This document shows, piece after piece, positions 4,647 through 51,677 of a DNA stretch of 64,000 nt (position 1 is its first letter; each line of letters starts with the position of its first letter). Source of the DNA: an uncultured Acidimicrobiales bacterium. Its GTDB lineage: Bacteria > Actinomycetota > Acidimicrobiia > Acidimicrobiales > Aldehydirespiratoraceae. Made by a program: the position numbers and the translations under genes. The stretch covers positions 242,773 through 306,772 of the forward strand of contig CATOTC010000005.1 in assembly GCA_951812975.1 (NCBI GenBank), written 5' to 3'. Below the pieces are notes generated by a model. It saw nothing but the letters and a program-made list of their open reading frames with translations. It was not told the DNA's origin and did not search any database.

Positions 4647-5392
4647 GCGCTACCGACAACGGCACCGGCAACGGCGCTACCGCCCTGCTTGAGATGCGCG
4701 GTGTCAACACCCACTACGGCGCCGTCCACATCCTCAAGGACGTCGAGTTCTCGATCTATCCAGGCGAGTTGGTGTGCCTGCTCGGGGGCAACGCCTCAGG
4801 CAAGTCGACCACGCTGAAAGCCCTGCTGGGAATGGTGACGCCCACCACCGGCGATGTACTGCTCAACGGCGAGACAGTCACCGACAAACCGATCTCGTAT
4901 CGGGTCGAACGGGGCGTGACGATGGTTCCCGAGAACCGGCGACTGTTCAAACGGCTCTCGGTCAAGGACAACCTCGAACTCGGAGCCTTCCTGCGTTCGG
5001 ACCGCTCCGCCATCGATGCGGACCTCGAGCGGATATTCGCGATGTTCCCGCGGGTCAAGGAGCGACTCAACCAGAAGGCCGGCACCCTGTCCGGCGGTGA
5101 GCAGCAGATGGTGGCGATAGGCCGGGCCCTGATGTCTGACCCGAAGGTGCTGTTAATGGACGAACCTTCGATGGGGCTCGCTCCGGCCCTGGTACAGACG
5201 AACTTCGAGTTGATCAAGCAGATCCATTCGCAGGGAGTGGCCATATTCGTGGTCGAGCAGAACGCCAACATGGCGCTCTCGATCGCGGACCGGGGCTGGG
5301 TGCTTCAGACCGGCCGAGTCGTCCTCGACGACACCGCCGAGGCCCTCCTCGCCAATCCCGATCTCCGTGCCAGCTACCTCGGAGAGACCTGA
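4643..5392 (+). CDS. livF: ABC transporter ATP-binding protein LivF
   Basis: ATGA overlap with livG. Walker A GGNASGKST, signature LSGGEQQM, Walker B LLMDEPS. Confidence 0.9.
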   Translation: MSATDNGTGNGATALLEMRGVNTHYGAVHILKDVEFSIYPGELVCLLGGNASGKSTTLKALLGMVTPTTGDVLLNGETVTDKPISYRVERGVTMVPENRRLFKRLSVKDNLELGAFLRSDRSAIDADLERIFAMFPRVKERLNQKAGTLSGGEQQMVAIGRALMSDPKVLLMDEPSMGLAPALVQTNFELIKQIHSQGVAIFVVEQNANMALSIADRGWVLQTGRVVLDDTAEALLANPDLRASYLGET

Positions 5393-6225
5393 TCAGCCGG
5401 TTTGTCGAGGGCGGTGGCGGCGAGCCGCTCGAGCAGGGCCAGTGTCTTGGAGCGGAGGGTCTCGGCAGCTGTCGCCAGGTTCTCAACGAACTGAGCCTCG
5501 GTGGCAACGGGCGAGTCGACCAGATCGGTGATCGTCTTGACAGCGCCTACAGGAATTGCGTGGAGGTGGCCGACCCATGCAACAGCCGCCGCCTCCATCT
5601 CCTTGACCTCGGCACCGCTGGCAATGATCCTCTCGCGGTCGGTCGGTGACTCGTCGAAGCTGTCGCCGGTCGTGACGATGCCGAGTCAACAACCGAGCGC
5701 TGAGGCGTGACTCCGCAGGTCCGCCGCAGCAAGCTTGCTCTCACCCATGACATCGAAACCCGGTAGCGGGATCCGACGGTCATGACAGGTGAAGCGGGGC
5801 CACGCGAAGTAGGCGTCACCGATCTGCGCGCCGGCCCGGAGCCATCCGCCGGCGGTCCCGATCGAAAGAACCAGATCCGCAGCGGGACGATCCAGGTTGA
5901 GGGGACGATCCAGGTTGAGGGGACGATCCAGGTTGAGAGCGACGTGGGTGGTGAGGGCCGCGGCTGTGCTGCCGACCGCATCGACGCCGAAGATCGGATC
6001 GGTCCCGTTGACCGCGAGGAGCACGTCGGGTCTGTCGTCAGTCGCAGGAGCATGCGAGAGCCGACACGGCAGGCCGGCGGCCCAGACCGGCGGGTCGAGA
6101 GGCTGCGCCCCGAGAGCGTCTCGCAGCGGCGCCGCCTCCGCCTCCATCGCCATGACGATCACCACACGCTCCGCCCGCTCGACAGCGGTGTGACCGCGAG
6201 TCGCGGATCCAGCTTCGGTGCTCAT
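5374..6225 (-). pseudogene. 5'-methylthioadenosine/S-adenosylhomocysteine nucleosidase (MTAN/Pfs; MqnB-type also possible), interrupted by in-frame TGA at 5686-5688 and carrying an LNLDRP x3 insertion
   Basis: Segments align to E. coli MTAN: VIVMAMEAEAAPLRD ~ GIIGAMEEEVTLLRD; SIGTAGGW ~ NTGSAGGL; after the TGA, LGIVTTGDSFDES ~ GLIVSGDAFI and EMEAAAVAWVGH ~ EMEATAIAHVCH. The flanking ORFs 5686-6537 and 5374-5598 are in the same frame, separated only by the TGA. Confidence 0.6.
5884..5937. repeat. perfect 18-bp tandem repeat x3 (GGGACGATCCAGGTTGAG) inside the MTAN homologue, encoding LNLDRP x3
   Basis: Three identical back-to-back copies read directly in the sequence. In-frame. Confidence 0.9.
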
Positions 6226-13811: not shown

Positions 13812-15218
13812 ATGGAATCAGCTTCTGTGACCGGCCTGTTGGACCCCACCACCGCTGTTGGTGTCGGTTGTGGCATTGCCGGGTCGGTGTGTGTCGGGCG
13901 GGTTGATGAGGCGGGGTTGTCTGATGAGGGGCTGCGGTCACACTTGAAGGTGTTGGGTCGTGCGGAGTCTCGGTTGGTGGCGATGAGGTCGCGGGCGTTG
14001 GCTGAGTTGAGCCGCCGTCACAGCACCGCGGATGCGCAGCGTCTGGTACGTGACGAGCTGCAGGCCTCCAAGCGAGAGGCCAAACGCGATGTTGAGACCG
14101 CGGCGCGGTTGGCGGAACTGCCAGCCACCAGTGAGGCGTTGGAGTCTGGTGAGATCCCCCAAGGTCACGCCCGGTTGATCGCCCGAGCATCTGGGGAGAG
14201 CCTGATCGATGAGGCGCTGCTTGTCGAATCAGCCAACAGCGAGCCCTTCGATGAGTTCGCCCAGACTGTGAAACGCCATCAACAAGACGTGGCCGATGAC
14301 GACGGACAAGCCTTGTTGGACCGTCAACGCGCCAAACGCAAAGCACGGATCTTCGAATCAGCCGACTCTGGGATGTTCGTGCTTTCTGCCGAGTTCGATC
14401 AGATCACCGGAGCACGAATCGCCACCGCGTTGACCGCCAAAGAACGACAGCTGTGGCACCGCGAGGACCCCACGGCGCGTGCCACGCCCCAGCAGCGCAT
14501 GGCCGACGCGTTGGCCAAGCTGATCTGTCAACCATCCGGTGACGGAAAGTCTGCGGGCACGGATCTGCTGGTGATCGCAGATTTCGATGTGCTCAAACAA
14601 CAACTCGACAACCCCCGGTTGGCTGACGGTTCACCAATACCGATCGTTGAGCTGCACCGCCTGGCGCTCGAAGCAAACCTGTTGCCCTCGATCTTCGACG
14701 CCAAAGCCCAAGACATGTGGATGGGCCGCCGCCTGCGGACCGCGACTGAAGCTCAACGTGTCGCGTTGATCGCAAGAGACCAGCACTGCATCGGCTGTGG
14801 CGCCAACCCCTTGTGGTGCCGAGCACATCACATCATCTGGTGGTCAAGGAACGGACCCACCTACCTCGACAACCTCGCACTGGTCTGCGACGACTGCCAC
14901 CACAAAATCCACGACCACCACTGGCAAGTCCACCAAGACCCAACAACCGGAAAATACGACCTCAAACCCCCTGGCGCCACCGACACGACAACTGCGATCA
15001 AGCAGATCAGGACACAAAGCCGAACCACCCAGAGCAACCCAACCGCCGCAACGAACACCACCGACCCCAGCAGGACACAAGACCGAACCGCCCAGTGCAA
15101 CCGAACCACCGCATGCCCGGGCGATACGGAGACGTCCAAACAGATGACACTGACCGGCCCCCTACAACAGCACGCAGTCGGCGCCGGCGACGCCGATCCG
15201 TCAAACAGAAAACGCTGA
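13812..15218 (+). CDS. DUF222 + HNH endonuclease domain protein (REP13E12-family-like)
   Basis: HNH motif CIGCGANPLWCRAHHIIWWSRNGPTYLDNLALVCDDCHHKIH. N-terminal DUF222-like region. Thr/Gln/Pro-rich low-complexity tail. AT-rich upstream region. Confidence 0.85.
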   Translation: MESASVTGLLDPTTAVGVGCGIAGSVCVGRVDEAGLSDEGLRSHLKVLGRAESRLVAMRSRALAELSRRHSTADAQRLVRDELQASKREAKRDVETAARLAELPATSEALESGEIPQGHARLIARASGESLIDEALLVESANSEPFDEFAQTVKRHQQDVADDDGQALLDRQRAKRKARIFESADSGMFVLSAEFDQITGARIATALTAKERQLWHREDPTARATPQQRMADALAKLICQPSGDGKSAGTDLLVIADFDVLKQQLDNPRLADGSPIPIVELHRLALEANLLPSIFDAKAQDMWMGRRLRTATEAQRVALIARDQHCIGCGANPLWCRAHHIIWWSRNGPTYLDNLALVCDDCHHKIHDHHWQVHQDPTTGKYDLKPPGATDTTTAIKQIRTQSRTTQSNPTAATNTTDPSRTQDRTAQCNRTTACPGDTETSKQMTLTGPLQQHAVGAGDADPSNRKR

Positions 15219-15300
15219 CCGACGCCCAACAACAGCACGCAGTCGGCGCCGGCGACGCCGATCCGTCAAACAGAAAACCCAGACCGGCACCGAACAACAC
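15148..15300. repeat. ~65-bp tandem repeat x2.3 spanning the HNH gene stop codon
   Basis: CAACAGCACGCAGTCGGCGCCGGCGACGCCGATCCGTCAAACAGAAAAC occurs at 15165-15212 and 15230-15277, with matching CTGACCGxCxCC leaders. Unit 1 contains the TGA stop. Confidence 0.8.
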
Positions 15301-16158: not shown

Positions 16159-17159
16159 CCGTTTACCTCGTCGGTGCAGGGCCGGGAGACCCCGACCTGC
16201 TGACCGTCAAGGCCACCAGACTGCTGCAGCGCGCCGATGTGGTCGTCTACGACCGCCTCATCGAGCCGGCAGTGCTCGACCTCGCCCCGCCCTGGGCCGA
16301 GATGATCGACGTCGGCAAGCGCCCCGGCGCACCCACGGACTCCCAGACCCGAATCAACGATGTGCTGATCGACCGGGGCCGCCGGTTCGACTGCGTCGTC
16401 CGTCTCAAAGGGGGCGACCCCTTCGTGTTCGGACGCGGCGGGGAGGAGGCACTCGAACTGCGGGCCGCAGGCATCGACGTCGAGGCGGTACCGGGGATCA
16501 CCTCTGCATTAGCGGCACCCGCCGCGGCCGGGATACCCGTCACCATGCGAGGCGTTAGCAGCGGTTTCACCGTCGTCACCGGCCACCAGGACCCCAACAC
16601 CGACCAATGGCTCGACTGGGACGCCCTCGCTCGCACCGGCACGACCCTGGTGATCCTGATGGGCGCATCACGCACCACCCTGATCTCGCAGCGGCTCATC
16701 GCCGCCGGAATGGCCACCGACACGGCCGTCGCCATCGTCTACTCCGCTACGACCGACCACGAGAGCGTCACAAGAACCACCCTCGCCGAACTTCCCGACA
16801 TCGAAGTAACCAACCCGTCGACGCTGGTGATCGGCTCAGTCGCCGCCCAATCCGTGATCAAAACGGAACTGACTCAGTGCTTAGCGGAGGTGACCATGGC
16901 CGCAGCCGGGCTGAATCGAGGCGAAACCGGGCTGGCCCCGGCCGTAGACGCAATCCCCGCCTCTCCCGGCCATTTCAACACCAACGCGCTCGCCAACCAT
17001 CACGAACTAGCCAACCATCAACAACCCGCCAACCGACACGAACCCGCCAACAACCACCAACCGGCCGGCAACGGGGAAGCGGCCGGCTCTCAAGAACCGG
17101 CCCACCGCCAAGAGACGACCGACCGTAATGAACCGACCCGGAAAGGGGCCCTGAGATGA
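16155..17159 (+). CDS. cobA: uroporphyrinogen-III C-methyltransferase with C-terminal low-complexity tail
   Basis: ATGA overlap with upstream gene. VYLVGAGPGDPDLLTVKA and VVRLKGGDPFVFGRGGEE motifs. Confidence 0.9.
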   Translation: MTVYLVGAGPGDPDLLTVKATRLLQRADVVVYDRLIEPAVLDLAPPWAEMIDVGKRPGAPTDSQTRINDVLIDRGRRFDCVVRLKGGDPFVFGRGGEEALELRAAGIDVEAVPGITSALAAPAAAGIPVTMRGVSSGFTVVTGHQDPNTDQWLDWDALARTGTTLVILMGASRTTLISQRLIAAGMATDTAVAIVYSATTDHESVTRTTLAELPDIEVTNPSTLVIGSVAAQSVIKTELTQCLAEVTMAAAGLNRGETGLAPAVDAIPASPGHFNTNALANHHELANHQQPANRHEPANNHQPAGNGEAAGSQEPAHRQETTDRNEPTRKGALR

Positions 17160-20307: not shown

Positions 20308-20836
20308 AAGTGAACCGAGCGTTCACTCTTGCAGCGCTGTTTCCGGTTCCCGGCCACAGCCGTTTGGTCTTGGACTTGTTGACTGTATGCCAGTAGCAAA
20401 TGGTTCCTTCGGCGACGGAACCGCATCGATACACTTGGAGCGCTACCCAGACATCTGCTTTTTCTGGACAATCGCCTCCAAGGGGCCTCCACCAGCCATG
20501 CACTGACACATCAGTCCGATTGAACGAGTTTGAGATGTGGACATCATCGCTGTCTCCGGTGTGTTGGCAGTTGGTGAACCAAGGCCAACGCGCCAAAGAC
20601 GATCCAGACCTCGACCAAGCGGACAGATCGCTGTCTTCGTCGGCGTATGCGCCAGAAAACTGGCTGTCCACAAAGTCGCCGTTCGCTGATCCAGAACTAG
20701 CCCCCTCGTCGGACGCCGGTTCGTCATACGCAGAAGCGGATGAGGTAACGACGACTGACAGAACGAAAAAAACACAGCCATAATTTTCAGTGCTGATTGA
20801 AACTTCACAACAACCCTCCCAGGTAGTAATAGTCAC
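20189..20836 (-). CDS. hypothetical Cys/Trp-rich protein with hydrophobic signal-like N-terminus (GTG start; uncertain)
   Basis: ...YGCVFFVLSVVVTSSASA|YDEP resembles a signal-peptide h-region plus AxA site. An acidic linker is followed by a Cys-containing domain. Low GC. Overlaps the neighbouring ORF by ~120 bp. Confidence 0.35.
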   Translation of the reverse strand: MTITTWEGCCEVSISTENYGCVFFVLSVVVTSSASAYDEPASDEGASSGSANGDFVDSQFSGAYADEDSDLSAWSRSGSSLARWPWFTNCQHTGDSDDVHISNSFNRTDVSVHGWWRPLGGDCPEKADVWVALQVYRCGSVAEGTICYWHTVNKSKTKRLWPGTGNSAARVNARFTCVTRRTVSWRAVVDVDIPGEVDGSEKYHSSAYSIPCTSR

Positions 20837-20866
20837 GATGCTATCGGGTTCGGCGCGAAACAGACC

Positions 20867-20929
20867 GACTTCGACGAGGCAGGCCCCTACGAAGCAGTCG
20901 TCGGCGATTCGGAGTGCGCCACCTGAACC
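20867..20929. repeat. 63-bp direct repeat, right copy
   Basis: Identical to 18890-18952. Confidence 0.9.
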
Positions 20930-20949
20930 GATCTACGATCACGGGTGAC

Positions 20950-26257: not shown

Positions 26258-28066
26258 TCAGCCCTCGTCTATCCAGACGTTGTGGTAGAAGCCGCGTCCC
26301 TGATTATTGCAGACCAGGACGGTGTCGTCAGGCCCGGTCTGGCCGCAGATGTTCTTCACGGCGTTGCGGAAGCCGACAGTCCAGTTGGTATGCGTCAAGA
26401 AGATGTAGGAGTAGGTCGACTGAATCTCAGCCTGGATCCCCTGCATGATCTCGACACGGCGGTCCAGGTCTGCTGTGGCACGCTGCTCGAACAGCAGCGC
26501 ATCACGGTCCTCGTTGCACAGACGGACCCAGTTGAGCGTGATCACGCCGGTGGCGGTCGCACACTCGAGCCAGACGACCTCGTTGTCGGGGTCGACCGCC
26601 CCGAACTGACGCCAGGTCACCACTTGGAACTGCCCGATGGCAGTCTGCAGGATGTGCTGGTCCTGAGGCAGCTGCTGGCGCTCGACCTGGAAGTACGGTT
26701 CCCAACCGGCGGACAACACATCCATGATCCGGGTCTGGAGCGTTGAGGGGCCGGAGAACTGGAGTTCGATGTTGACCTTGCCGCCGCTGCAGTTCTCGGG
26801 GAAGTCGGCACAGTAGGCGTCCACGAGCGGCCCGGCCCGGTCTGCCATGTTGCCTTCCTGGACGACGTCGGGATTGTTCCAGGTCAGGTCCGGGTGGTAC
26901 ATCGAGTCGGCGAAAGGCCTGGTGCCCTGCCCGATCAGGTCGTGGTACGCCTGGCGGTCCGTGGCGAAAGTCAATGCCTGACGCACGCGGAGGTCGTCCA
27001 TCGGAGCTGCGCGTGTGTTCAACATGATGAAGTCTTCACCGGAGTACAGATTCTCGAACGTCGACACATCCTCGGCGTCGCGCAGGGTGAGTGTCGCGTC
27101 CGCGTTGGACGTGACCACAACATCGAGTTCACCCGCTGCAACCTGCTCGGCTGCAAGAGCGGTATCGGTCGTGATGAAGATCTCGATGGCGTCGAGATAG
27201 ATGTCGTCGGTCCCCCGCCAGTAGTCGGGGTTCCTGACCAGCTTGGTGGACACGTCCTGGGTGCGGCTCTCGAGCATGAACGGGCCGGTGCCGACCGGTG
27301 CCTGGTTGAGGCTGTCGTCCTCAGCGGCTGCAGCCAGCCAGGTCGGTGAGGCCACCATGCCCAACTGGGAGGTCAGATTGATCGGGAAGTGGGCCGACGG
27401 ACGGATCAGGTTGTATTGAAGGGTCAGGTCGTCGATCTTCTCGTAGCGGTTCTCGGCGGGATAGCTCGGCACGATCGCCAGCGAGATGATCGGGTCGGTG
27501 ATCGCCGTCTCGAAGTTGGCGATCAGCGCATCAGCGTTCAGGGGTGTTCCGTCGTGGAAGGTGATGCCCTCGCGGACCTTCACCTGCCAGGACGATCCGT
27601 CACCGATCTTCGTGGCCGATTCAGCCAGGAAGGGGAACCAGTTGCCGTCCTTGTCGATATAGAACAGCGGGTCGAACATGGCGAATCCCATGGTGTAGGC
27701 CGACACCGCGAAGTTGTTGGCGGCAGGGTTGAGACCATCGGTCTCCGCTTCCACCGCAATCCGCAACGTCCCGCCCCGCACTGGCTGTGGAGCCTCGTCG
27801 TCTCCGGTGGTCGGCTCATCACAGGCATCACCGATGCAGACATTGCCTTCGGTGACGTCTTCGACCGGCGCCGCGGTGGTCGACGGGGCGTCATCGCCAT
27901 CGTCATCGCCATCGCCATCGTCACCGTCATCGCCGACGGCAACATCGCCGCCGTCGTCGCCTGTGGTGCCATCGTCATCGCCGCCGCAGGCGACGGCAAC
28001 GAGACACAACGCAAGAAGTAGCGCAAGAAGCTGCCCAAACACTGTGGGCCTAGTACGGGATCTCAT
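26258..28066 (-). CDS. ABC transporter substrate-binding lipoprotein, family 5 (OppA/DppA-like) with Asp/Gly-rich linker
   Basis: Signal peptide + LVAVAC lipobox. SBP_bac_5 features. DGDD repeats encoded by GATGGCGATGAC repeats around 27890-27960. Confidence 0.85.
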   Translation of the reverse strand: MRSRTRPTVFGQLLALLLALCLVAVACGGDDDGTTGDDGGDVAVGDDGDDGDGDDDGDDAPSTTAAPVEDVTEGNVCIGDACDEPTTGDDEAPQPVRGGTLRIAVEAETDGLNPAANNFAVSAYTMGFAMFDPLFYIDKDGNWFPFLAESATKIGDGSSWQVKVREGITFHDGTPLNADALIANFETAITDPIISLAIVPSYPAENRYEKIDDLTLQYNLIRPSAHFPINLTSQLGMVASPTWLAAAAEDDSLNQAPVGTGPFMLESRTQDVSTKLVRNPDYWRGTDDIYLDAIEIFITTDTALAAEQVAAGELDVVVTSNADATLTLRDAEDVSTFENLYSGEDFIMLNTRAAPMDDLRVRQALTFATDRQAYHDLIGQGTRPFADSMYHPDLTWNNPDVVQEGNMADRAGPLVDAYCADFPENCSGGKVNIELQFSGPSTLQTRIMDVLSAGWEPYFQVERQQLPQDQHILQTAIGQFQVVTWRQFGAVDPDNEVVWLECATATGVITLNWVRLCNEDRDALLFEQRATADLDRRVEIMQGIQAEIQSTYSYIFLTHTNWTVGFRNAVKNICGQTGPDDTVLVCNNQGRGFYHNVWIDEG

Positions 28067-28160
28067 TTCTTTTCTCCTCCAGGAATCACAATCGGTCTGT
28101 GACTCACGCCACAAGGTCTAGCACCTCGGAGCGCGATTTGGGTACGCCACAAGCAATGAA

Positions 28161-28232
28161 CCGTTCCCCGGCTCCGGCCACGCCCGGCGAAGACACCGTT
28201 CCCCGGCTCCGGCCACGCCCGGCGAAGACACT
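28161..28232. repeat. 36-bp tandem repeat x2 (CCGTTCCCCGGCTCCGGCCACGCCCGGCGAAGACAC), member of the dispersed GGCTCCGGCCACGCCCGGC family
   Basis: Two perfect adjacent copies in the intergenic region between two minus-strand genes. Core shared with the 42763-43035 array. Confidence 0.9.
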
Positions 28233-28240: not shown

Positions 28241-29020
28241 TCACGGATGTTGGCTGCTCACCGAGACGACCTCGCCTGTCATGTAGGACGACAAGTCGCT
28301 CGCCAAGAAAACCATCACGTTACCGACCTCCCAGGGCTCAGCGGCGCGGCCGAACGCTTCGCTTCTCGACAGGTCTCCAAGCAGTGCTTCATCGGTCACC
28401 TTGGCAAGGAACGGGTGCATCGCGATGCTCGGCGCCACCGCGTTCACGCGGATGCCATGCTCGGCAGCCTCAATGGCCGAACAGCGAGTCAGTGCCATCA
28501 CCCCCGCCTTCGCCGCTGCGTAATGGCACTGCCCCGCTTGGGCCCGCCACCCCACGACCGACGCATTGTTGACTATCGCGCCCTGCGTTCCGGCTTCGAT
28601 CATGTGGCGCAGAACCGCACGTGTGCAGCGCATCGTGCCGTCGAGGGTGACTCCCAAGACCGCATTCCACTGCTCGTCGGTCATGTCGACGAGCGCAACG
28701 GTCCCGCCGAGCCCTGCGTTGTTCATCATCACATCGATTCCGCCGAGGCCGCTGACCGCCGCCTCGACCAGAGCCGCGACGTCCTCTTCTAGCGTGACAT
28801 TGCAGACCGCGGTCAACGGGCGGTCCCCCGTCTCGTGCGCGAGTCGGTCGGCTGTCTCGTCCAGGCGCCGCTCATGAATGTCGGAGATGAGCACCTCCGC
28901 CCCCTCGACCAGGCAGCGCTTGGCCACCGCAGAACCGATCCCGGTGCCCGCAGCCGCGGTCACGACCACACGTTTGCCGCCAAGCAGGCCCCGACCCTGC
29001 GGTTCAGGCCCCGCAGACAT
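28241..29020 (-). CDS. SDR family oxidoreductase (3-oxoacyl-ACP reductase-like)
   Basis: TAAAGTGIG motif, NNAG, YAAAKAG. Confidence 0.85.
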   Translation of the reverse strand: MSAGPEPQGRGLLGGKRVVVTAAAGTGIGSAVAKRCLVEGAEVLISDIHERRLDETADRLAHETGDRPLTAVCNVTLEEDVAALVEAAVSGLGGIDVMMNNAGLGGTVALVDMTDEQWNAVLGVTLDGTMRCTRAVLRHMIEAGTQGAIVNNASVVGWRAQAGQCHYAAAKAGVMALTRCSAIEAAEHGIRVNAVAPSIAMHPFLAKVTDEALLGDLSRSEAFGRAAEPWEVGNVMVFLASDLSSYMTGEVVSVSSQHP

Positions 29021-37958: not shown

Positions 37959-38948
37959 GTGCCGACCAGCGCAGAGCCGAAGACCCCTGTTTCAATGCTG
38001 GTGGACTGTGATCCGGGGCTTGACGACGCTATCGCTCTGCTGACCGCGGCGTATTTTTCGGAGTTGGTCGGTATCACCACTGTCGACGGCAACGTGGGGA
38101 TCGAGCACACCACCCGCAACGCCCTGGCGGTGGCGCAAATCGCCGGGCTCGACGTTGACGTTCACCGCGGGGCGGCGCATCCGCTGGCCGACGAACCCAG
38201 AGGCGCACGACACGTTCACGGTGCCACCGGACTCGGCGACGTGGAACTGCCCGCTATCACCCGGTCCATCGAATCCGACGACGCTGTCGGGTTCATCCTC
38301 GAAACCAGCCATCGGATCAAAGACCTTCATCTCGTGGCGGTCGGGCCTCTCACCAACATCGCCGAAGCGCTGCAACGAGACACCACGCTGCCCGACCGGC
38401 TCAGCGGGCTCACCATCATGGGAGGAGCGGCAGTGGGGGGAAACGTCACCGCCACCGCCGAGTTCAACATCTGGGCCGACCCCGAAGCCGCCGACATCGT
38501 CTTTCGTCTGGGGGGCGACATCACCATGGTCGGGCTCGACGTCACCCAACAGGTGCTGCTCGGACCCGATCAAGTCGCGCAGATGCGTCTTGCCGACACC
38601 CCCGCGGCGACCCTCGCAGCGGACCTCCTCGGCTACGCGATCGACCGGTCAACCGAGTTGAGGGGCTGGACGGGGGCCCCGATTCACGACGCCTGCGCAG
38701 TGCTCGCCGTGACCCACCCACACCTGTTCGCCGGAAACCGCCGGCCAGTCGCCATCGAACTCACCGGCACACACACCCGGGGCATGACCGTCGTGGACGA
38801 TCGGCACGCAATCACACGCAACGCAAACACAGGCAACGATCACGCAGACGGCGACAACAGCGTCCGCGTCCTGCGCACCGCGGAGGCTGACGCGGTCATC
38901 GGGTTGATCGTCGAGGCCGTCACCGCAGGCCCCCTACACCGGACCTGA
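37959..38948 (+). CDS. nucleoside hydrolase (IUNH family)
   Basis: DCDPGLDDAIAL aspartate-cluster motif. 2 bp after the ribokinase stop. Confidence 0.85.
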   Translation: MPTSAEPKTPVSMLVDCDPGLDDAIALLTAAYFSELVGITTVDGNVGIEHTTRNALAVAQIAGLDVDVHRGAAHPLADEPRGARHVHGATGLGDVELPAITRSIESDDAVGFILETSHRIKDLHLVAVGPLTNIAEALQRDTTLPDRLSGLTIMGGAAVGGNVTATAEFNIWADPEAADIVFRLGGDITMVGLDVTQQVLLGPDQVAQMRLADTPAATLAADLLGYAIDRSTELRGWTGAPIHDACAVLAVTHPHLFAGNRRPVAIELTGTHTRGMTVVDDRHAITRNANTGNDHADGDNSVRVLRTAEADAVIGLIVEAVTAGPLHRT

Positions 38949-39188
38949 CGAACTCACCGAGCGATACAGGCTCAGACCGAGCGGTACAGGTGCGCGATGA
39001 AGCGGTCTCCCACCTCGATGCCCGCGTCCGCGTCCTGCGCACCGCGGGGGCTGACGCGGTCATCGGGTTGATCGTCGAGGCCGTCACCGCAGGCCCCCTA
39101 CACCGGACCTGACGGACTCACCGAGCGATACAGGCTCAGACCGAGCGGTACAGGTGCGCGATGAAGCGGTCTCCCACCTCGATGCCCG
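38864..39188. repeat. ~161-164-bp tandem duplication x2 covering the 3' ends of two convergent genes
   Basis: 38864-39024 and 39025-39188 are near-identical (2 mismatches noted). Each copy carries the nucleoside-hydrolase C-terminal codons plus stop, and the tail of the minus-strand ORF. Confidence 0.85.
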
Positions 39189-39633
39189 ATGTCAGGATCG
39201 TCACCGCGCGGACCATCCAGCCGACCACAGCCGCCAACTCGACATCGGCGCCGATTTCAACAACCACACCGTGCTTCGCGTGGTCCTGGCGCTTGACCCA
39301 CCCGTCAGGCAGTTCCAGGCCGGCCTCCCGCAGTCGTTTCAGCGCATTGGGCCCCTGCCCGTGCTCAACGCCGACCTGTGCGGCCCTCGACCGGCCGGAG
39401 GTCTGCGCCGGCATCCAGGTACCCATCGCCACGCTCGGCCCACGACCCGAGAACCATGCTGCGAGCCCGCTGCGGGCCGGGACCTGTGCCGCCTGCTCGT
39501 CGGTGAGCGCAGGGCCGATATTGACCCACCCGTCAGCGCCGGGAGCGGCTGCAGTCTCCGCCATGGCCGAAACGACCGCCGAAAGATCATCCCGCTCAAA
39601 GGAGATCTGTCTCACCGGTTCGATCGACACCAT
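39136..39633 (-). CDS. hypothetical protein
   Basis: Start chosen at MVSIEPVRQ (ATG 39633), the second in-frame Met of the tracked ORF. No family recognised. Confidence 0.4.
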   Translation of the reverse strand: MVSIEPVRQISFERDDLSAVVSAMAETAAAPGADGWVNIGPALTDEQAAQVPARSGLAAWFSGRGPSVAMGTWMPAQTSGRSRAAQVGVEHGQGPNALKRLREAGLELPDGWVKRQDHAKHGVVVEIGADVELAAVVGWMVRAVTILTSGIEVGDRFIAHLYRSV

Positions 39634-39699
39634 CGCAACGGTACCCCGTTGGAGGGGCGGCGACCGGTACCATGAGCCAGCGAGCGGGAAAACCCCTCT

Positions 39700-41253
39700 T
39701 TGACCATGGCAAAAACCTCTCGAGCCCTCTCCCTGATCATCGTTTGCTGTGTCGCGGTGTCGGCTCTGGCGACACCCGCGCTCAGCCAGGGGGATCAACA
39801 GATCCTGCAAGAGGAGGAGGCACTCCTGCGCCAACAGGAGCTACGACGCGATGAGCTCACCGCGCTGATCGCCGAGAAGGAGGCCGCGCTCCGGGGGCTC
39901 GGCGACGAGATCTTCGGACTGGCCGACACGATCGCGATCAACAACACCCAACTTGAGTTCCTGGCCGACGAACTCGAAGAGACCGTAGATGAACGACGCG
40001 AACCAGAGGCCACCCGAGTCCAGATCGCCCTGATCAGCTTCAGGAAGGGCGATCCTCGGCAGAGCGAACTGGTCGACGAGATCCGCGCTCTGGACAACCG
40101 CGCCGAGACAACACAGCGGCGCGTGCTCTACGAGTCCGTGATCTCCGAAGCGACCCGACGCCTCGACGAGCTCAACATCCGCCTGCAAGACCTCAGCAAC
40201 CAACTCGCCGCGACCCGACAACTCGTCGAGGAGTCCCAGGATCAGATCGACCAACGCCAAGCCTCCCAACAACAATTGACCGACGAGATCGCCACAGCGA
40301 AGGCGGAACTTGAGTCCACGCTGCTGGAGATCCAGAACACGCTTGTCCGGATCGGAAACGCAAACGACAGGACACAGGTGACTGAAGCTGTGTTGACCGG
40401 GCTCAATATCGAGGGGCGGGTCTCGAGGCCGGCGCTCGTGGTGAAGATCGACAACGTCAGAGCTGCGATGCCCCAATCAGGCATCAACCAAGCCGACATC
40501 GTGTACGTCCAACTGGTCGAGGGTGCCACCCGCCTCGCTGCGGTGTTCCACTCGACGGCCCCGGCAGAGGTCGGTCCGGTCCGGTCGATGCGAACCGGCG
40601 ACTTCGATCTGCTCGCCCCTCTCAACGGCCCGTTGTTCGCCAATTCAGGCGGCAACAGAGGCACCCGCGCAGCACTGGCCAACTCGACGCTCGTCGACAT
40701 CGGGGTGAGCACTGCCGCGCAGCTCTACTACCGGAGCGCCGGCCGCAGTGCACCACACAACCTCTTCACCAACACGCAGAATCTGTGGTCGGTCGGAAGC
40801 GAGTTCTCCGATACCGGGCTGCCTCCGCCGATGTTCGTGTTCCGGGAGCCGAACGAACCGATCAACTCCACCGCGGTTCCGGCCAGTTCCATCGATATCG
40901 ACTACGCCTACACCGAAGTCCAATACACCTGGAACGGGTCGGGCTGGAATCGAACCCAGGACGGCAGACCGATAGTCGACACCAGGGGCGTACGCACCAG
41001 CCCGGCCACGGTGATCGTCCAGTTCACGAACTATGGGCGCTCAGCAGCAGACTCCCGGTCGCCCGAGGCGATCACCGTCGGCAGCGGCCCGGCGCTGGTG
41101 TTCACCGACGGTCACGTGGTGGAGGCCACCTGGTCCCGTCCGAGGGTCAACGATGTCACAGTCTACACGGACAGCGAGGGTCGCCCGATTTCGATTCTCC
41201 CGGGCCGGACGTGGGTCGAACTCCCCCGCCCCGCCAGCACGTCGTATTCCTGA
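39700..41253 (+). CDS. secreted DUF3048-domain protein (YerB-like) with N-terminal coiled-coil
   Basis: Signal peptide. ~200-aa heptad-rich region. C-terminal RPALVVKIDN...ADIVYVQLVEGATRLAAVF characteristic of DUF3048. Confidence 0.7.
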   Translation: MTMAKTSRALSLIIVCCVAVSALATPALSQGDQQILQEEEALLRQQELRRDELTALIAEKEAALRGLGDEIFGLADTIAINNTQLEFLADELEETVDERREPEATRVQIALISFRKGDPRQSELVDEIRALDNRAETTQRRVLYESVISEATRRLDELNIRLQDLSNQLAATRQLVEESQDQIDQRQASQQQLTDEIATAKAELESTLLEIQNTLVRIGNANDRTQVTEAVLTGLNIEGRVSRPALVVKIDNVRAAMPQSGINQADIVYVQLVEGATRLAAVFHSTAPAEVGPVRSMRTGDFDLLAPLNGPLFANSGGNRGTRAALANSTLVDIGVSTAAQLYYRSAGRSAPHNLFTNTQNLWSVGSEFSDTGLPPPMFVFREPNEPINSTAVPASSIDIDYAYTEVQYTWNGSGWNRTQDGRPIVDTRGVRTSPATVIVQFTNYGRSAADSRSPEAITVGSGPALVFTDGHVVEATWSRPRVNDVTVYTDSEGRPISILPGRTWVELPRPASTSYS

Positions 41254-41265: not shown

Positions 41266-42219
41266 CTAGAGGCTTACGACAGCGGCACGCACCAGGTCGT
41301 GAGCGCATTCGCCCGCTTCGGTGACCGTGAGCCTTTCCGCTCCACCTTCGCCCATGACCAGAGTGTGTTCGAATTGAGCGGTGCGGCTGCCATCGATGGT
41401 GACAGCAGTCCATTCGTCGTCCCACATCGCCGCTTCGGGCGATCCGAGCGTGAGCATCGGCTCGATCGTGAACGTGGTGCCGTACGAAAGCGGGATGGCC
41501 AGCCGACGGTCGTGGTAGTGGGGAATCTGCAGACCCGAGTGGAACTCCGTGCCGACGCCGTGTCCGATGAACTCGCGGACCACACCGAGCCGATGCTTCA
41601 TGGCATGCGACTCGATGGCACGCCCGATGTCGCGCACCATCGCATCTGGACCGAGCGCGGCGATGGCGAGATCCAGGGATTCCAGCGTGACCTGGACGAG
41701 CTTCACGGACTCAGGGGCAACATCGCCCACCAGGAACGTTGTGGAGGTGTCTCCGTGCACGCCCTCGCGGTAGAGGGTGACGTCTATGTTGACGATGTCG
41801 CCGTCGCACAGCGGCCGGCTGTCGGGAATACCGTGGCAGATCACCTCGTTCACAGACGTGCAGACCGACTTGGGGTAGCCCCGGTAGTTGAGCGGGCTCG
41901 GATAGCCGCCCGCCTCGACCGAGAGGTCGTGGACCAACCGGTCGATCTCATCGGTGGTGACTCCGGGGCCGACCAGACCGCCGGCCCTCAACAGGATCTC
42001 CGCGGCCGCGGCTCCGGTGCGACGCATTGCCGCGAGTTCCTCGGGTGTGCGGACCAGCGACGATCCCGAAGGCGGCGGCTGGCCGGTGAGAGCGTAGGGT
42101 GGCCGTTGAATCGCCGCTGGTACACGGCGAGTGGGACTCAGCAGGCCCGGCACGACCGGAGGGTACGACGGCTCGACCGACGATGGCCGGGGACTGCGCC
42201 GTTTGCGTTTGGCCATCAC
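41266..42219 (-). CDS. map: type I methionine aminopeptidase with proline-rich N-terminal extension
   Basis: Metal ligands in the canonical MetAP arrangement. N-terminal PxxP-rich extension as in actinobacterial MapB-type. Confidence 0.9.
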   Translation of the reverse strand: MMAKRKRRSPRPSSVEPSYPPVVPGLLSPTRRVPAAIQRPPYALTGQPPPSGSSLVRTPEELAAMRRTGAAAAEILLRAGGLVGPGVTTDEIDRLVHDLSVEAGGYPSPLNYRGYPKSVCTSVNEVICHGIPDSRPLCDGDIVNIDVTLYREGVHGDTSTTFLVGDVAPESVKLVQVTLESLDLAIAALGPDAMVRDIGRAIESHAMKHRLGVVREFIGHGVGTEFHSGLQIPHYHDRRLAIPLSYGTTFTIEPMLTLGSPEAAMWDDEWTAVTIDGSRTAQFEHTLVMGEGGAERLTVTEAGECAHDLVRAAVVSL

Positions 42220-42256
42220 TCAGCACCCTTGTAGGCCGGGGGTGCGACACCGCAGG

Positions 42257-42712
42257 TCATCGCAGGAACCGGCTGACCGACTCAACGACGCAGGCCGGCT
42301 TGGTCTGACCGTCGATCTCGACGGTGATGGTTATGACTGCCTGAACTCCCCCGTTGACCTCGAGCGCTTCGCTGAGAACCGCGCTGGCCCGGACTCTGCT
42401 CCCGACCGTGACCGGCTGAGGGAAGCGAACTTTGTTGGTGCCGTAGTTGATCCCCATCGAGGCGTTGTCGACACGCACGATCTCGGGAAGGAACTGGTTG
42501 GTGAGCGCCAGAGTGAGATATCCGTGGGCGACGGTGGCCCCGAACGGACCCTGCTCTGCTGCTACTGGATCAACGTGAATCCACTGATGGTCCCCTGTTG
42601 CGTCGGCAAAAAGGTTGATGCGCTCCTGGCTGATCGTGAGCCACTCACTCGACCCGAGATCAGTTCCTACGGCTTGCACCAAGTCGTCCGGAGATTCAAA
42701 GACTGTCACCAT
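42257..42712 (-). CDS. MaoC-like (R)-specific enoyl-CoA hydratase/dehydratase
   Basis: Hot-dog fold motif DHQWIHVDPVAA...GATVAHGY. Confidence 0.8.
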   Translation of the reverse strand: MVTVFESPDDLVQAVGTDLGSSEWLTISQERINLFADATGDHQWIHVDPVAAEQGPFGATVAHGYLTLALTNQFLPEIVRVDNASMGINYGTNKVRFPQPVTVGSRVRASAVLSEALEVNGGVQAVITITVEIDGQTKPACVVESVSRFLR

Positions 42713-42762
42713 GAGAAGCAACGGTACCCGGTGCACGGATGCTCGTCACCGCCCGCATCCTC

Positions 42763-43035
42763 CGCGGCTCCGGCCACGCCCGGCAACAACACAGCGCTAA
42801 CCCCAGACGACACCAGCGGCCACGGCTCCGGCCACGCCCGGCAACAACACAGCGCTAACCCCGCACGACACCAGCGGCCGCGGCTCCGGCCACGCCCGGC
42901 GCAAACACAGCGCCCGGCACCGCAACAACCTGTCACGGCTCCGGCTCCGCCCGGCGTTAGCAGAGCGCTATCCTCAGACGACACCAGCGGTCGCGGCTCC
43001 GGTTGTGCCCGGAGCAAACACAGAGCGGCAAGACC
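42763..43035. repeat. ~58-bp tandem repeat array x5 (VNTR/MIRU-like), progressively degenerate
   Basis: Units start at 42763, 42821, 42879, 42934 and 42992. Each begins C(G/A)CGGCTCCGGCCACGCCCGGC. Sits in the intergenic space upstream of the CDF transporter gene. Confidence 0.85.
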
Positions 43036-43047
43036 CAAGGAGCTTGA

Positions 43048-43998
43048 ATGGCAGCGAGTGGCGGAACCAAGGCGATCCTGGCTGCTTTCTTCGCGAATCT
43101 CGGCATCGCCATCGCCAAGTTCGTGGCGTTCGCCTTCACCGGGGCCTCCTCGATGCTGGCTGAGGCGATCCACTCCTGCGCCGACACCGGCAACCAGGCC
43201 CTGCTTCTGCTGGGCGGGCGGCTCGCCAGAAAAGAAGCCACCACGACTCACCCGTTCGGTTACGGGCGTGAGCGATACTTCTGGTCCTTCGTGGTTGCCC
43301 TCGTGCTGTTCACCGTGGGCTCCATGTTCGCGTTGTACGAGGGCATCGAGAAGATCCGTCACCCGCACGAGATCGATGCTCCCATCTGGGCCTTTGCCGT
43401 CCTGTCGTTCGGCATCGTGTTGGAGGGCTTCTCGTTCCGCACTGCCATCGTCGAATCCAACCGGGTCCGTGGCGATCTGAGCTGGACAAGGTTCATCAGG
43501 CGCTCCCGGACCCCGGAGCTCCCCGTTGTGCTTCTCGAGGACCTCGGCGCCATGATCGGTCTGGTTCTGGCACTCGGTGCTCTGGCGATCGCGGTGGCGT
43601 TCGACTCTCCCGTCTGGGACGGAATCGGCACCCTCTCGATCGGCGTTCTGCTGGGTCTGATCGCGGTGGTTCTCGCCATCGAGATGAAGAGCCTGCTGAT
43701 CGGCGAGGGAGCGACCGCCAAGACCCGGGCCAAGATCGTCAGCGCTGTTGAGAGCGTGGACGGCGTTGAGGGCATCGTCCACATCCGCACTCAGCACATT
43801 GGCCCAGATGAACTGCTCGTCGGTGCGAAGGTGGCGTTCGACCCGAGCTACACGACCAGGCAATTGACCGACGCAATCAACGAGATCGAAGCGAGGGTCC
43901 GCGGAGACGTGCCCGAAGCTCGCCCCATGTACATCGAACCCGACATCTATCGTCTCGACGCCTCCGAGGCCGGCGAAGGAGCAGGCGACGCGCAGTGA
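43048..43998 (+). CDS. cation diffusion facilitator (CDF) family metal efflux transporter
   Basis: Six TM helices. HSCAD metal site in TM2. Confidence 0.9.
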   Translation: MAASGGTKAILAAFFANLGIAIAKFVAFAFTGASSMLAEAIHSCADTGNQALLLLGGRLARKEATTTHPFGYGRERYFWSFVVALVLFTVGSMFALYEGIEKIRHPHEIDAPIWAFAVLSFGIVLEGFSFRTAIVESNRVRGDLSWTRFIRRSRTPELPVVLLEDLGAMIGLVLALGALAIAVAFDSPVWDGIGTLSIGVLLGLIAVVLAIEMKSLLIGEGATAKTRAKIVSAVESVDGVEGIVHIRTQHIGPDELLVGAKVAFDPSYTTRQLTDAINEIEARVRGDVPEARPMYIEPDIYRLDASEAGEGAGDAQ

Positions 43999-44853: not shown

Positions 44854-45324
44854 ATGCCCGCGAGCGGACCGGTCAGCGAGAGCCAGCGCTTGGCACTCTT
44901 GAACCGCCTGTGCGAAGTACTGGGAGAGGAGGAGGCGAGAGTCCTCATGGAGAGCCTGCCCCCCGTCAACTGGCACGACCTCGCCACCAAAGACGACGTC
45001 TTTCTCCTCAAAGACGACCTCAAGACCATCAACAAGGCCATCGAGGCCAACAAAACGGCCATCGAGGCCAACAAAACGGCCATCGAGGCCAACAAAACGG
45101 CCATCGAGGCCAGCGAACAACGGCTACGCGTCGAGATGCACGCCGCGTTCGCCAACTTCCGCGCCGAGATGTCCGCCGAGTTCAAGACGCTGCGGGCTGA
45201 GAACAAAGAGCATCGGGGGGAAGTGGCGCTTCAGTTCGCCAAGCAGACCCGCATGATGGTGTTCACCATGCTGGGGCTGACGGTGCCGATCTTAGGCGCG
45301 ATCCTGGGCGTGGGGTTGACGTAA
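44854..45324 (+). CDS. hypothetical coiled-coil protein with C-terminal TM anchor (DUF1640-like architecture), contains AIEANKT x3 repeat
   Basis: 21-bp unit GCCATCGAGGCCAACAAAACG x3.5 at 45037-45112. Heptad-like sequence. C-terminal hydrophobic helix MVFTMLGLTVPILGAILGVGL. Confidence 0.5.
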   Translation: MPASGPVSESQRLALLNRLCEVLGEEEARVLMESLPPVNWHDLATKDDVFLLKDDLKTINKAIEANKTAIEANKTAIEANKTAIEASEQRLRVEMHAAFANFRAEMSAEFKTLRAENKEHRGEVALQFAKQTRMMVFTMLGLTVPILGAILGVGLT

Positions 45325-46625: not shown

Positions 46626-46810
46626 ACGTCACAGACACACCCAACAGCGAACCGATCAGGAACGCGGCACCGCAAGCGCGAACTCGCTACGTCACAGACA
46701 CACCCAACAGCGAACCGATCAGGAACGCGGCACCGCAAGCGCGAACTCGCTACGTCACAGACACACCCAACAGCGAACCGATCAGGAACGTGGCACCGCA
46801 AGCGCCTGCC
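46626..46810. repeat. 63-bp tandem repeat x~3; each unit re-encodes the C-terminus plus stop of the VIT transporter gene
   Basis: Unit starts at 46626, 46689 and 46752 (period 63). Reverse-complement translation of each unit gives ...FLIGSLLGVSVT*. Confidence 0.85.
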
Positions 46811-50033: not shown

Positions 50034-50900
50034 TCAGCTCGAGGCGCCGACAATGACCTTGTCACCCCACGCGGCGAGCGCATCGGCCGTGTCTCTGAAA
50101 AACAGGAAGGACGGCACGATCATGCGGCTCGCCCCCCAGGAGGCCAGCTCCTCGACGGCGGCGCCCGGATCATCACCGAATATGCCCATGTGCTGGCCGG
50201 TCAACTCGATCGCCGCTGGATCACGGCCATGGTCCGCGGCGGTCTGGCGAACGATCTCGTACAACTCCGGCAAATCGCCTTTGGCCGGCCAGAAACCGTC
50301 TCCGACGCGGCCCGCCCGTTCCGCGGCCGCACGGCTGTGCCCGCCGATGTGGATCGGTACGGAGCCGCTGGCCGGCTTGGGGTTGCAGGAGATCGGGTCG
50401 AAGCTGACGAACTCTCCGTCGAAGGACACGGCATCGTCGGCCCAGAGTGCCCGCATCACCTCCATGTACTCCTCGGTGCGAGGACCGCGCCGCGGCCACG
50501 GCACACCGAGCGCTTCGAACTCTTCTTTGAGCCAGCCGATGCCGATTCCCAACTCGACTCGCCCACCCGACATGTTGTCGAGCGTGGCCACCTCCTTGGC
50601 ATAGGTGATCGGGCTGCGCTCAGGGAGCAGTGAGATACCGGTGGCGAGACGCAGGTTGGTCGTGTGGGCGGCCACGAACCCGAGCCAGATCAAAGGATCG
50701 GGGATCGGGCTTTCGCCTGTACCGGGCATCTTCCCGCTCTCGTCGTAGGGGTAGGTGGACTGGTACCCCTCGGGATAGATGATGTGTTCAACAGTCCACA
50801 CCGACTCGAAGCCCGCTGCTTCAGCGGCTTGACCGATCATCTTGGCACCCTCGCCGGTACCGAAGTGCATGACGTTGGCAAACGCCAGTCCGAATTTCAT
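50034..50900 (-). CDS. LLM-class (luciferase-like) flavin/F420-dependent oxidoreductase
   Basis: MKFGLAF start. TIM-barrel LLM motifs. Confidence 0.85.
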   Translation of the reverse strand: MKFGLAFANVMHFGTGEGAKMIGQAAEAAGFESVWTVEHIIYPEGYQSTYPYDESGKMPGTGESPIPDPLIWLGFVAAHTTNLRLATGISLLPERSPITYAKEVATLDNMSGGRVELGIGIGWLKEEFEALGVPWPRRGPRTEEYMEVMRALWADDAVSFDGEFVSFDPISCNPKPASGSVPIHIGGHSRAAAERAGRVGDGFWPAKGDLPELYEIVRQTAADHGRDPAAIELTGQHMGIFGDDPGAAVEELASWGASRMIVPSFLFFRDTADALAAWGDKVIVGASS

Positions 50901-51035
50901 GTCTGGATCCTTATTCTGGTTGGTGAAACGTTCATCCTGCCACTGTTTTGTCCCCGGGCGTAACCGGAGCCTCTGCAATTGCCGGGCGTAACCGGAGCCG
51001 CCTGCGCTCACACCGGGCGCGGCCGGTGGCTGGAT

Positions 51036-51677
51036 TCAGTCGAGCCAAGGTTCGTCGAGCTCCCAGGGCTCGATCCTCTCAGGTTCGGCAGCCTGCGAGT
51101 GGCGCGGTTCGGCCATTGCCTTGGCCGCGATGACGCCGCCCAGCATGCCGAACAGGTGCCCCTCCCAAGAGATGAAGTCCTGGGGCACGATCCCGGCCAC
51201 CAACCCGCCGTAGAGCATGATCACCAACAGCGCCGAGGCCAATGCCCTTACGCGGCGTTCGAAGACCGCCGCGGCGAGGATCGCTCCGAAATACCCGAAC
51301 ACCACCCCGCTGGCACCGATGTGGTTGCCGAATCCCGCGAGCGCCCAGGTCAGGCCGCCCCCGACGACTATCACCGTCACTGTCACCCACGCCCAGTAGC
51401 GCATCCCCCGCACCGCGACCAGTCCACCGAGAATCAGCAGAGGCAGCGAGTTCGAGGTGACGTGGCCGAAGTCGGAATGGAGGAACGGCGCGAAGGCGAT
51501 GCCGTCGATCCCTTCTCGGCGCCGGGGAAGGATGCCGTTGCCCTGAAGCCGATCGTCGAGCGCGAGCGTGTCGACGATCTCGATTCCCCACATCACCGCC
51601 AGGGCCAGGACCAGCAGACCGACCGGTGTCCACAGCAGTCGCCAGAACGAGCGCCTCGGTTCTGCGGATTCGGCCAT
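51036..51677 (-). CDS. rhomboid family intramembrane serine protease
   Basis: GASG catalytic serine motif and downstream His in a TM helix. About six TM helices. Confidence 0.8.
   Translation of the reverse strand: MAESAEPRRSFWRLLWTPVGLLVLALAVMWGIEIVDTLALDDRLQGNGILPRRREGIDGIAFAPFLHSDFGHVTSNSLPLLILGGLVAVRGMRYWAWVTVTVIVVGGGLTWALAGFGNHIGASGVVFGYFGAILAAAVFERRVRALASALLVIMLYGGLVAGIVPQDFISWEGHLFGMLGGVIAAKAMAEPRHSQAAEPERIEPWELDEPWLD

Follow-up and report, generated by a model that had tools for sequence, protein, structure and literature searches.

A dispersed family of tandem repeats built on one short shared core was found in the window, the stretch of 64,000 nucleotides analysed here, in which it forms three intergenic arrays, and in related genomes of the Acidimicrobiia, in which it lies both between and inside genes. 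The arrays probably represent a dispersed minisatellite that expands by exchange between its cores and is kept where it does no harm. The features of the window and the genes of relatives that carry the repeat are collected in Table 1.

Table 1. Features of the three arrays and their neighbours in the window, and genes of related genomes with in-frame repeat DNA (given by locus).
Feature	Position or locus	Strand	Basis or remarks
Array 2, 2.06 perfect copies of the 35-bp unit ACCGTTCCCCGGCTCCGGCCACGCCCGGCGAAGAC	28160-28231	+	TRF, 100% matches
SBP_bac_5 solute-binding protein ('oppA'-like)	26258-28066	-	Pfam
SDR	28241-29020	-	Pfam; gene end at 28241
Array 1, five direct units	42763-43023	+	TRF, core matches, unit profile HMM
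GCTATCCTC box in array 1 unit 4	42967-42975	+	Alignment of four orthologous spacers
MaoC-like dehydratase	42257-42712	-	Pfam
Cation diffusion facilitator (CDF)	43048-43998	+	Pfam Cation_efflux 6e-36; neighbour of array 1, outside the repeat
Array 3, two units and a degenerate third copy (51011-51030)	50942-51030	-	Core matches, profile HMM
Luciferase-like monooxygenase	50034-50900	-	Pfam
Rhomboid	51036-51677	-	Pfam
gltB	L005 and L010		Insert of ~150 aa in GATase_2; Pfam match interrupted, its second stretch starting at profile position 164
Acyl-CoA ligase	L112 (5 copies), L066 (1 copy)		AMP-binding interrupted between profile positions 195 and 210
nuoL	L089, L044, L013		Insert between first transmembrane helices and Proton_antipo_N
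kgd/odhA	L050		Insert between 2-oxogl_dehyd_N and acyltransferase domain (2-oxoacid_dh)
SBP lipoprotein	L107		Insert forms linker after signal peptide
Sdh_cyt-like membrane protein	L016		Insert forms C-terminal tail
GT4 glycosyltransferase	L018, L122		Insert at N-terminus
hyuA (hydantoinase A)	L074		Antisense insert read APGVAGAAEA (PGVAGAA); conserved C-terminal sequence resumes after it

Array 1 occupies much of the 335-bp divergent spacer between the start of the MaoC-like gene (42712, minus strand) and that of the CDF gene (43048, plus strand). Its five cores, located by TRF and the unit profile, begin at 42766, 42824, 42882, 42937 and 42995, giving spacings of 58, 58, 55 and 58 bp before the last unit, in agreement with the five-unit array of about 58 bp described in the first-pass annotation. 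The 19-mer core GGCTCCGGCCACGCCCGGC is exact in the first three of these and has two mismatches at 42937; TRF reported 42765-43002 with a period of 58, 4.2 copies and 78% matches. The diverged fifth unit (42992-43023, core GGCTCCGGTTGTGCCCGGA) was recovered with a profile HMM trained on units of the family. Units 1 and 2 are identical but for three positions, and units 3-5 are more diverged, which is the gradient that had been noted before.

Array 2 lies 10 bp past the stop of the SDR gene (28241) and 94 bp upstream of the SBP gene, the start of which is fixed at 28066 by the lipoprotein signal peptide MRSRTRPTVFGQLLALLLALCLVAVAC, and it is antisense to both neighbours. GGCTCCGGCCACGCCCGGC is exact at 28170 and 28205. 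Two copies of 36 bp had been described here; the two perfect tandem units stand, with a period of 35 according to TRF. The genes named next to the two arrays (CDF, 'oppA'-like SBP and SDR) had been assigned correctly, as judged by Pfam and the SBP signal peptide. Array 3 separates the rhomboid stop (51036) from the monooxygenase start (50900), has the same orientation as both genes and contains GGCTCCGGTTACGCCCGGC twice, 28 bp apart, its units reading GGCTCCGGTTACGCCCGG(C/G). It should be noted that this array (50942-51030, minus strand) is absent from the first-pass annotation. All three arrays are non-coding. The window holds eight core matches at three or fewer mismatches, against 0.16 expected from dinucleotide-preserving shuffles, and a search of the 64 kb with the profile HMM of the unit gave no family copy beyond arrays 1-3. 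Four other minisatellites of the window, at 15137, 38860, 45036 and 46626, were rejected as family members by the unit HMM.

The unit consists of CGC, the core and an A/C-rich tail (about GAMAACACAGCG). Alignment of 93 units gave the full pattern CGC-GGCTCCGGC[C/T]ACGCCCGGC-[G/A]A[A/C]A[A/G]CA[C/A][A/C]GC, within which the conserved core measures approximately 22 bp, (C)CGC-GGCTCCGGC[C/T]ACGCCCGGC, with the flanking CGC and the tail pattern being conserved in addition to it. Unit lengths of 28, 32, 33, 35, 37, 38, 42, 45, 48, 58, 61, 66 and 87 bp were found across the arrays, and partial units (CGCCCGGC plus tail) are common. Given these many lengths and partial units, the family is best described as a shared core with tails of many lengths. 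The segments between cores, which can be as short as 13 bp (period 32), repeat from unit to unit; a CRISPR array, with its unique spacers, was rejected on this ground.

Related loci were collected by a scan for the exact 19-mer in one genome per GTDB species, which returned at least 117 blocks of up to 8 kb; as most of the related loci were found in this way, conservation of the core looks inflated in the sample. Among the matches listed, same-strand tandem arrays of 2-7 copies were all in Acidimicrobiia MAGs, mainly of Ca. Aldehydirespiratoraceae (OZ240616, OZ242337, OZ244898, OZ242187 and CBDFKX01), with further ones in Acidimicrobiales (OZ220692 and JAKZTU01, Langseth_MAG_00067), in the 'Acidimicrobiaceae' bins SB0670_bin_1 and RHO3_bin_4, and in Acidimicrobiia isolate 11. 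Single core copies, mostly in ORFs, were found among the same listed matches in Streptomyces, Proteobacteria, Acidobacteria and other groups, and the mycobacterial matches (L029, L035 and L101) were also single. When the motif was masked, ORFs abutted most of the single-copy matches on both sides. Those in other phyla look like chance occurrences in GC-rich coding sequence, and by a rough estimate tens of chance core matches would be expected in the genome collection. The viral contigs contained no exact-core match, and the two-core pattern was met in five stretches of the JGI metagenomes, three of them representing the same GT4 locus. Judged from the sequences compared, the element is restricted, among the matches listed, to Ca. 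Aldehydirespiratoraceae and neighbouring Acidimicrobiales. The first-pass annotation had proposed a dispersed family on the strength of two sites; now that the window has yielded a third site and related genomes numerous arrays, the repeat is clearly a dispersed family and not a local duplication. At a rough guess, family loci would occur once per 20-80 kb. A literature search on the clade name and on intergenic tandem repeats of Acidimicrobiia found nothing relevant, and to our knowledge such a repeat family has not been described in this class.

Syntenic genomes allowed the arrays to be compared at orthologous sites. The CDF protein of the window is 91-95% identical to those of the Ca. Aldehydirespiratoraceae chromosomes OZ243951, OZ244898 and OZ240616, with gene order conserved over 20 kb, and the window belongs to this clade. 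An array is present in the MaoC-CDF spacer of all four genomes compared, with five units in the window, about four in L118 (partly decayed), about five in L119 (partial units included, and with the proximal unit deleted) and two in L120. The two cores of L120 lie 56 bp apart and bracket GCTATCCTCAGACGACACCAGCGGTCGC with the invariant GCTATCCTC box, and the 58-bp unit of the window is this core-to-core interval in amplified form. From this correspondence we infer unequal exchange between neighbouring cores. Of the four genomes, the window and L119 contain array 3, with a TTAC variant in common, and the orthologous spacer of L118 and L120 has none. Copy number also differs between two metagenome contigs (L122 and L125) that are 99.7% identical over 5.7 kb: a 45-bp unit is present in five versus four copies, and a neighbouring 42-bp unit in two versus three, the two changes running in opposite directions. 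Since copy number changes both between species and between near-identical strains, the VNTR behaviour of the repeat is real, and so is the value as a typing marker that the first-pass annotation had ascribed to it.

The repeat had also been characterised as intergenic. This holds for all three arrays of the window; in related genomes, however, repeat DNA lies in-frame inside at least eight unrelated genes (Table 1). These inserts sit in loops, linkers or protein termini, and in the sense orientation they read (A)APATPG followed by D/E/N-rich residues, giving a Pro/Ala/Thr-rich linker. All 25 intragenic periods, from eight arrays, are multiples of 3 (33, 42, 45, 48, 54, 60, 66, 69 and 87), for which the chance, counted per array, is about (1/3)^8. 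Intergenic periods range from 28 to 61 bp, with multiples of 3 making up only about 4 of 35.

The acyl-CoA ligase provides an example of an intragenic VNTR, with 0 to 7 copies of PDSAAPATPGEST in one loop across orthologues. Measured from SGTTGxPKG to PxFH, this loop has 51 aa in distant relatives, 57 aa and no motif in orthologues at ~80% identity, and 58 to 143 aa in close relatives carrying one to seven copies. Comparison of the 0-copy and 1-copy DNA revealed no clean insertion boundary and no target-site duplication, and the two alleles look like patch replacement in an already variable loop instead of insertion. Among nuoL orthologues the array changes no more slowly than the coding sequence on either side, so that this comparison gives no sign of extra constraint on the core. 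The unrelated genes share one codon string, down to the rare Ala codon GCT, in a sample biased by the recovery of most loci through the 19-mer. This identity, together with the occurrence of both orientations, points to dispersal at the level of DNA and not to convergence of peptides.

In the dispersed minisatellite proposed here, arrays would gain and lose units by slipped-strand mispairing or by unequal exchange between cores, and the sequence between two neighbouring cores, including the −10-like box, would have been duplicated along with them to give the 58-bp unit. New arrays would be seeded at the DNA level by ectopic recombination, by templated repair or by an enzyme, and selection would retain harmless copies only: phase would be free in spacers, and copies inside genes would be those that are in-frame and benign. 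Vertebrate hypervariable minisatellites of the type of Jeffreys' 33.6 and 33.15 are dispersed arrays of varied unit lengths that contain one short GC-rich core and undergo unequal exchange. The present family resembles them in its short, shared, GC-rich core and varied unit lengths, and exchange between cores would explain the 58-bp unit; it differs in its bacterial host and in its far shorter arrays (2-8 units), and there is no evidence that its core is a recombination signal. As a tentative extension, non-palindromic minisatellites may be seeded throughout Acidimicrobiia genomes by an active process, specific to the lineage, that recognises the core or uses it as a hot-spot; candidates would be a dedicated recombinase or binding protein, or else templated repair.

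Another reading is that of a mobile element that is non-autonomous and depends on an enzyme dedicated to the core, in the manner of REP with its RAYT transposase, a MITE or the RPEs of Rickettsia, with the tandem arrays arising by secondary amplification. Such an element would account for a 22-bp core at many non-homologous loci in several species, for arrays that are present or absent at orthologous sites, and for in-frame insertions in unrelated genes in both orientations, as is the case for the Rickettsia palindromic elements, RPEs (PMC10969869). However, the unit has neither a palindrome nor terminal inverted repeats, the loci read have no transposase as a regular neighbour, neither a target-site duplication nor a sharp insertion boundary was found at array 3 or in the loop of the ligase, and the viral contigs contained no copies. 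The terminal inverted repeats and target-site duplications of a MITE were not seen either, the flanks at array 3 and the ligase being too diverged for a strict duplication test. A mobile element of this kind is therefore considered unlikely.

A role of the arrays in gene regulation was examined through their neighbours and the pattern of conservation in the core. The genes beside the arrays share no function and include those for CDF, monooxygenase, histidine phosphatases, P450, COX3, acetyl-CoA synthetase (ACS), thiolase and acyltransferase. Arrays were found in divergent, co-directional and convergent spacers, the last in L004, L011 and L116. Among the non-coding arrays between co-directional genes approximately six are sense and four antisense, and in the window one array is sense, one antisense and one in a divergent spacer. 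The lack of a gene theme, the mixture of spacers and orientations, the array-free orthologous promoters and the copies within essential coding sequences all argue against an operator, a promoter or an RNA element. The first-pass annotation had suggested a regulatory or insulator function; with arrays lying between convergent genes, missing from the promoters of sister species and placed beside functionally unrelated genes, nothing supports such a role, and no new regulatory system is indicated. At most, the three arrays of the window change the promoter or 5'-UTR geometry of the CDF and monooxygenase genes.

The core itself shows a bipartite pattern. In units found by synteny, GGCTCCGG and GCCCGG are nearly constant and the central 4 nt variable, and the spacing of the two CCGGC(C/G)A blocks of the core is exactly 10 bp, which places them on one face of the helix. 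This conservation could reflect a protein-binding site instead of neutrality. In unit 4 of array 1, the TATCCT within the GCTATCCTC box fits the TANNNT pattern of a −10 element. The box is single-copy, invariant in all four genomes and always located 13 nt past a core, with a decayed duplicate, GCTAACCCC, in units 1-2, and it may be the −10 element of the CDF gene. A consensus scan of the array 1 region gave no full sigma-70 promoter match and no intrinsic terminator. The bipartite pattern and the fixed spacing between core and TATCCT leave room for a core-recognising protein, whether a binding factor or a mobilising enzyme, each of low probability.

In the first case, the core might be the binding site of a clade-specific DNA-binding protein, for which a transcription factor or a nucleoid protein would be the candidate, and the arrays might be operator or iteron clusters for the CDF gene, the monooxygenase gene and the SBP operon. 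The conserved outer blocks with their variable centre would fit this, as would the core 13 nt upstream of the conserved TATCCT in 4/4 CDF promoters and the position of arrays 1 and 3, which end 25-45 bp upstream of start codons in sense orientation. However, five to seven copies lie within housekeeping coding sequences, arrays also stand between convergent genes, array 3 is missing from the L118/L120 promoter, L119 has lost the proximal unit of array 1, the downstream genes have no function in common, and the orientation of about six sense to four antisense in non-coding, co-directional contexts is mixed. Binding-site clusters are accordingly regarded as a doubtful explanation, somewhat more so than a mobile element.

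No conserved fold was detected in the repeat. On its sense strand, array 1 matches shuffled sequence in folding (z −0.03). Folds weaker than those of shuffles were obtained for single units (z +0.7 to +1.6) and in most cases for arrays 2 and 3, the antisense strand of array 2 being near its shuffles (z −0.3). A hairpin or terminator role was rejected, since folding is no better than that of shuffles. Somewhat stronger folding than in shuffles was obtained solely for the antisense strand of array 1 (z −2.5), where no conserved structure is supported. A 7-bp inverted repeat (GCTCCGG...CCGGAGC) is present only in unit 5 of array 1 and is not kept in L118 or L120. No Rfam family was found at the gathering threshold on the whole window, and a search of 42600-43150 at E <= 10 gave only noise.

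It is very unlikely that the arrays act at the level of RNA, whether by a cis-regulatory structure, by an sRNA or by a C-rich element for Rho loading (rut) or termination. Like rut sites, the sense strand of the arrays is rich in C and A, poor in G in the tails and unusually unstructured (z +1.3 to +1.6), and arrays lie just past the stop of a co-oriented gene in L004, L011 and L116 and at array 3. Against this, there is no Rfam match even at the relaxed threshold and no sense-strand fold signal, mutations in the CCGG blocks are uncompensated, array 2, L051/L069 and L102 are antisense to both neighbouring genes, and many copies appear from their reading frames to be translated sequence.

The repeat is free of stop codons in all three sense frames, and for this reason long ORFs run through the arrays of the window. 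That these arrays are themselves unannotated or decayed coding sequence, either AAPATPG linkers of the neighbouring proteins or small genes, as such ORFs and the coding copies of relatives might suggest, is hardly credible and was rejected on period, frame and start-codon evidence: periods of 58, 55, 35 and 28 bp shift the frame at every unit, array 1 lies between divergent genes with an in-frame TGA directly 5' of the CDF ATG, array 2 is antisense and precedes the in-frame stop upstream in the SBP ORF, whose signal peptide begins at 28066, and the orthologous genes are called without arrays.

The dispersed minisatellite can be placed beside known bacterial repeats, of which MIRU and REP had been named in the first-pass annotation. 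MIRU have no dyad symmetry, form small ORFs overlapping the stop and start codons of the flanking ORFs, and are fixed in orientation (PMC4473831). On the features described for MIRU, the Acidimicrobiia family resembles them in being made of dispersed direct tandem arrays, with units of tens of bp, in a high-GC actinobacterial genome; neither shows dyad symmetry, and both differ in copy number from strain to strain and can serve for typing (PMC4473831). To this extent the likeness to MIRU stands. It does not extend to the small ORFs overlapping flanking ORFs, which are absent, or to orientation, which is not fixed with respect to the flanking genes. At array 3, the stop codon of the rhomboid gene is free of any overlapping start codon, and the only overlapping uORF, at 50935-50897, lies outside the repeat and is present also in genomes without the array. 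The Acidimicrobiia family further differs in its unfixed unit length (tails of 28-87 bp on a shared core), in its in-frame occurrence inside genes and in its arrays being found, among the matches listed, only in Acidimicrobiia.

The likeness to REP elements and BIMEs is limited to both being short, GC-rich, dispersed intergenic repeats, including positions between convergent genes. In contrast to these, the Acidimicrobiia copies have no imperfect palindrome or hairpin and are never in inverted pairs or alternating orientation: the copies within every array are on the same strand, and inverted copies were never seen in the arrays read. As there is no dyad symmetry, no fold better than that of shuffles, and copies are always direct, the family is not REP-like. 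No RAYT (Y1 transposase) gene was seen in the loci read.

RPEs are palindromic, single-copy elements of ~100-150 bp that are found in-frame in unrelated housekeeping genes (PMC10969869). Like these and other intragenic MITEs, the Acidimicrobiia repeat lies both between genes and in-frame in unrelated housekeeping genes, to which it adds a tolerated peptide (PMC10969869). It differs in being non-palindromic, in forming tandem arrays of 33-87-bp units and in encoding a low-complexity Pro/Ala/Thr linker. The Rickettsia palindromic element would nevertheless be the closest analogy for the intragenic behaviour, and the family may, by analogy, be described as MIRU-like in form and RPE-like in its behaviour inside genes.

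For this uncultured and environmentally widespread clade within the Acidimicrobiia, the arrays represent ready-made VNTR markers. Being stop-free, they also give rise to long spurious ORFs and false N-terminal extensions, as exemplified in the window by 50034-51011 and 42131-43480, and this is a concern for annotation and assembly. Between genes, the same repeat DNA is found in any phase; inside genes, it occurs only in multiples of 3 and in benign frames. It therefore illustrates cleanly, in nature, how selection filters repeat insertions and how repeat DNA can give rise to low-complexity linkers in conserved enzymes. If the core is the hot-spot of an active process, new Pro/Ala/Thr linkers would routinely be built into essential enzymes (GltB, NuoL, Kgd and acyl-CoA ligases), in either orientation, and the family would be a bacterial counterpart of the Rickettsia RPEs that works through tandem repeats and not palindromes.

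The window was also found to carry tandem repeats at gene ends (see table). One of these, the 65-bp repeat, has units containing GGCGCCGGCGACGCCGAT followed by the C/A-rich tail CAAACAGAAAACAC, a layout like that of the dispersed minisatellite family of Acidimicrobiia, whose units consist of a 19-bp core and an A/C-rich tail. However, this likeness is loose, with six of the 19 core positions differing, and the repeat was not matched by the profile built from the family units (unit HMM). The 63-bp repeat shows no relation to the family. In the related genome L118, the orthologous CoA-transferase/VIT1 spacer is just 57 bp long and, on this comparison, the 63-bp repeat is a further lineage-specific expansion. 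Low-complexity coding repeats are generally abundant in this genome. The periods of the four short repeats within ORFs are all multiples of three, and one of the four, which is acidic and G/D/T-rich (GDD-type), falls where the SBP gene encodes its lipoprotein linker. The plus strand is C/A-rich in most repeats of the window.

A short upstream ORF (uORF) was detected whose TGA overlaps the monooxygenase ATG (ACATGA). It lies outside the family repeat and was found with or without the family array that precedes this gene (array 3). The uORF is present in the three syntenic loci L118, L119 and L120 with a differing peptide; as its length and the ATGA overlap are common to all three, it is suggested to be a translationally coupled leader. 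A transposase and an integrase are inserted in the part of L119 that is syntenic with the window, and neither of them adjoins the family arrays.

Features of the window and of related loci, with their coordinates
Feature	Location	Position	Details
uORF	window (-)	50897-50935	12 codons, MNVSPTRIRIQT then stop; upstream of luciferase-like monooxygenase gene
Short repeat in ORF	window	45036-45112	21-bp period; perfect or near-perfect, as next three
Short repeat in ORF	window	5884-5937	18-bp period
Short repeat in ORF	window	16991-17066	18-bp period
Short repeat in ORF	window	27889-27934	12-bp period
63-bp x 2.9 tandem repeat	window	46626-46805	99% matches; junction of CoA-transferase start and VIT1 gene end
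164-bp x 2 tandem duplication	window	38860-39188	98% matches; covers 3' end of ORF 37959-38948 and start of ORF 39161-39703
65-bp x 2.5 repeat	window	15137-15299	3' end of ORF 13812-15218
IS481-type transposase	L119 (OZ244898)	4077-5054	
Phage-type integrase	L119 (OZ244898)	20440-20945	
Second family array	L122 (MKWU01002964)	3916-4361	eight 61-bp units
Family array	L082 (JAPPMP010000012)	2894-3040	start codon apparently inside span

Among relatives, the Acidimicrobiia locus L082 has two 33-bp family units that precede a GGGAGG Shine-Dalgarno sequence and an ATG, with a third unit approximately 70 nt into the COX3-like ORF in the frame encoding AAPATPG, the peptide of sense-strand units inside genes; this array thus appears to straddle the start codon. 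The metagenome contig L122 holds a second array, with the core variant GGCTCCAGCC[A/G]CGCCCGGC, which is non-coding because its unit contains a TAG. It lies 3 kb from the in-frame array at the N-terminus of the GT4 glycosyltransferase gene on the same contig, and several family arrays can therefore cluster within a few kilobases.
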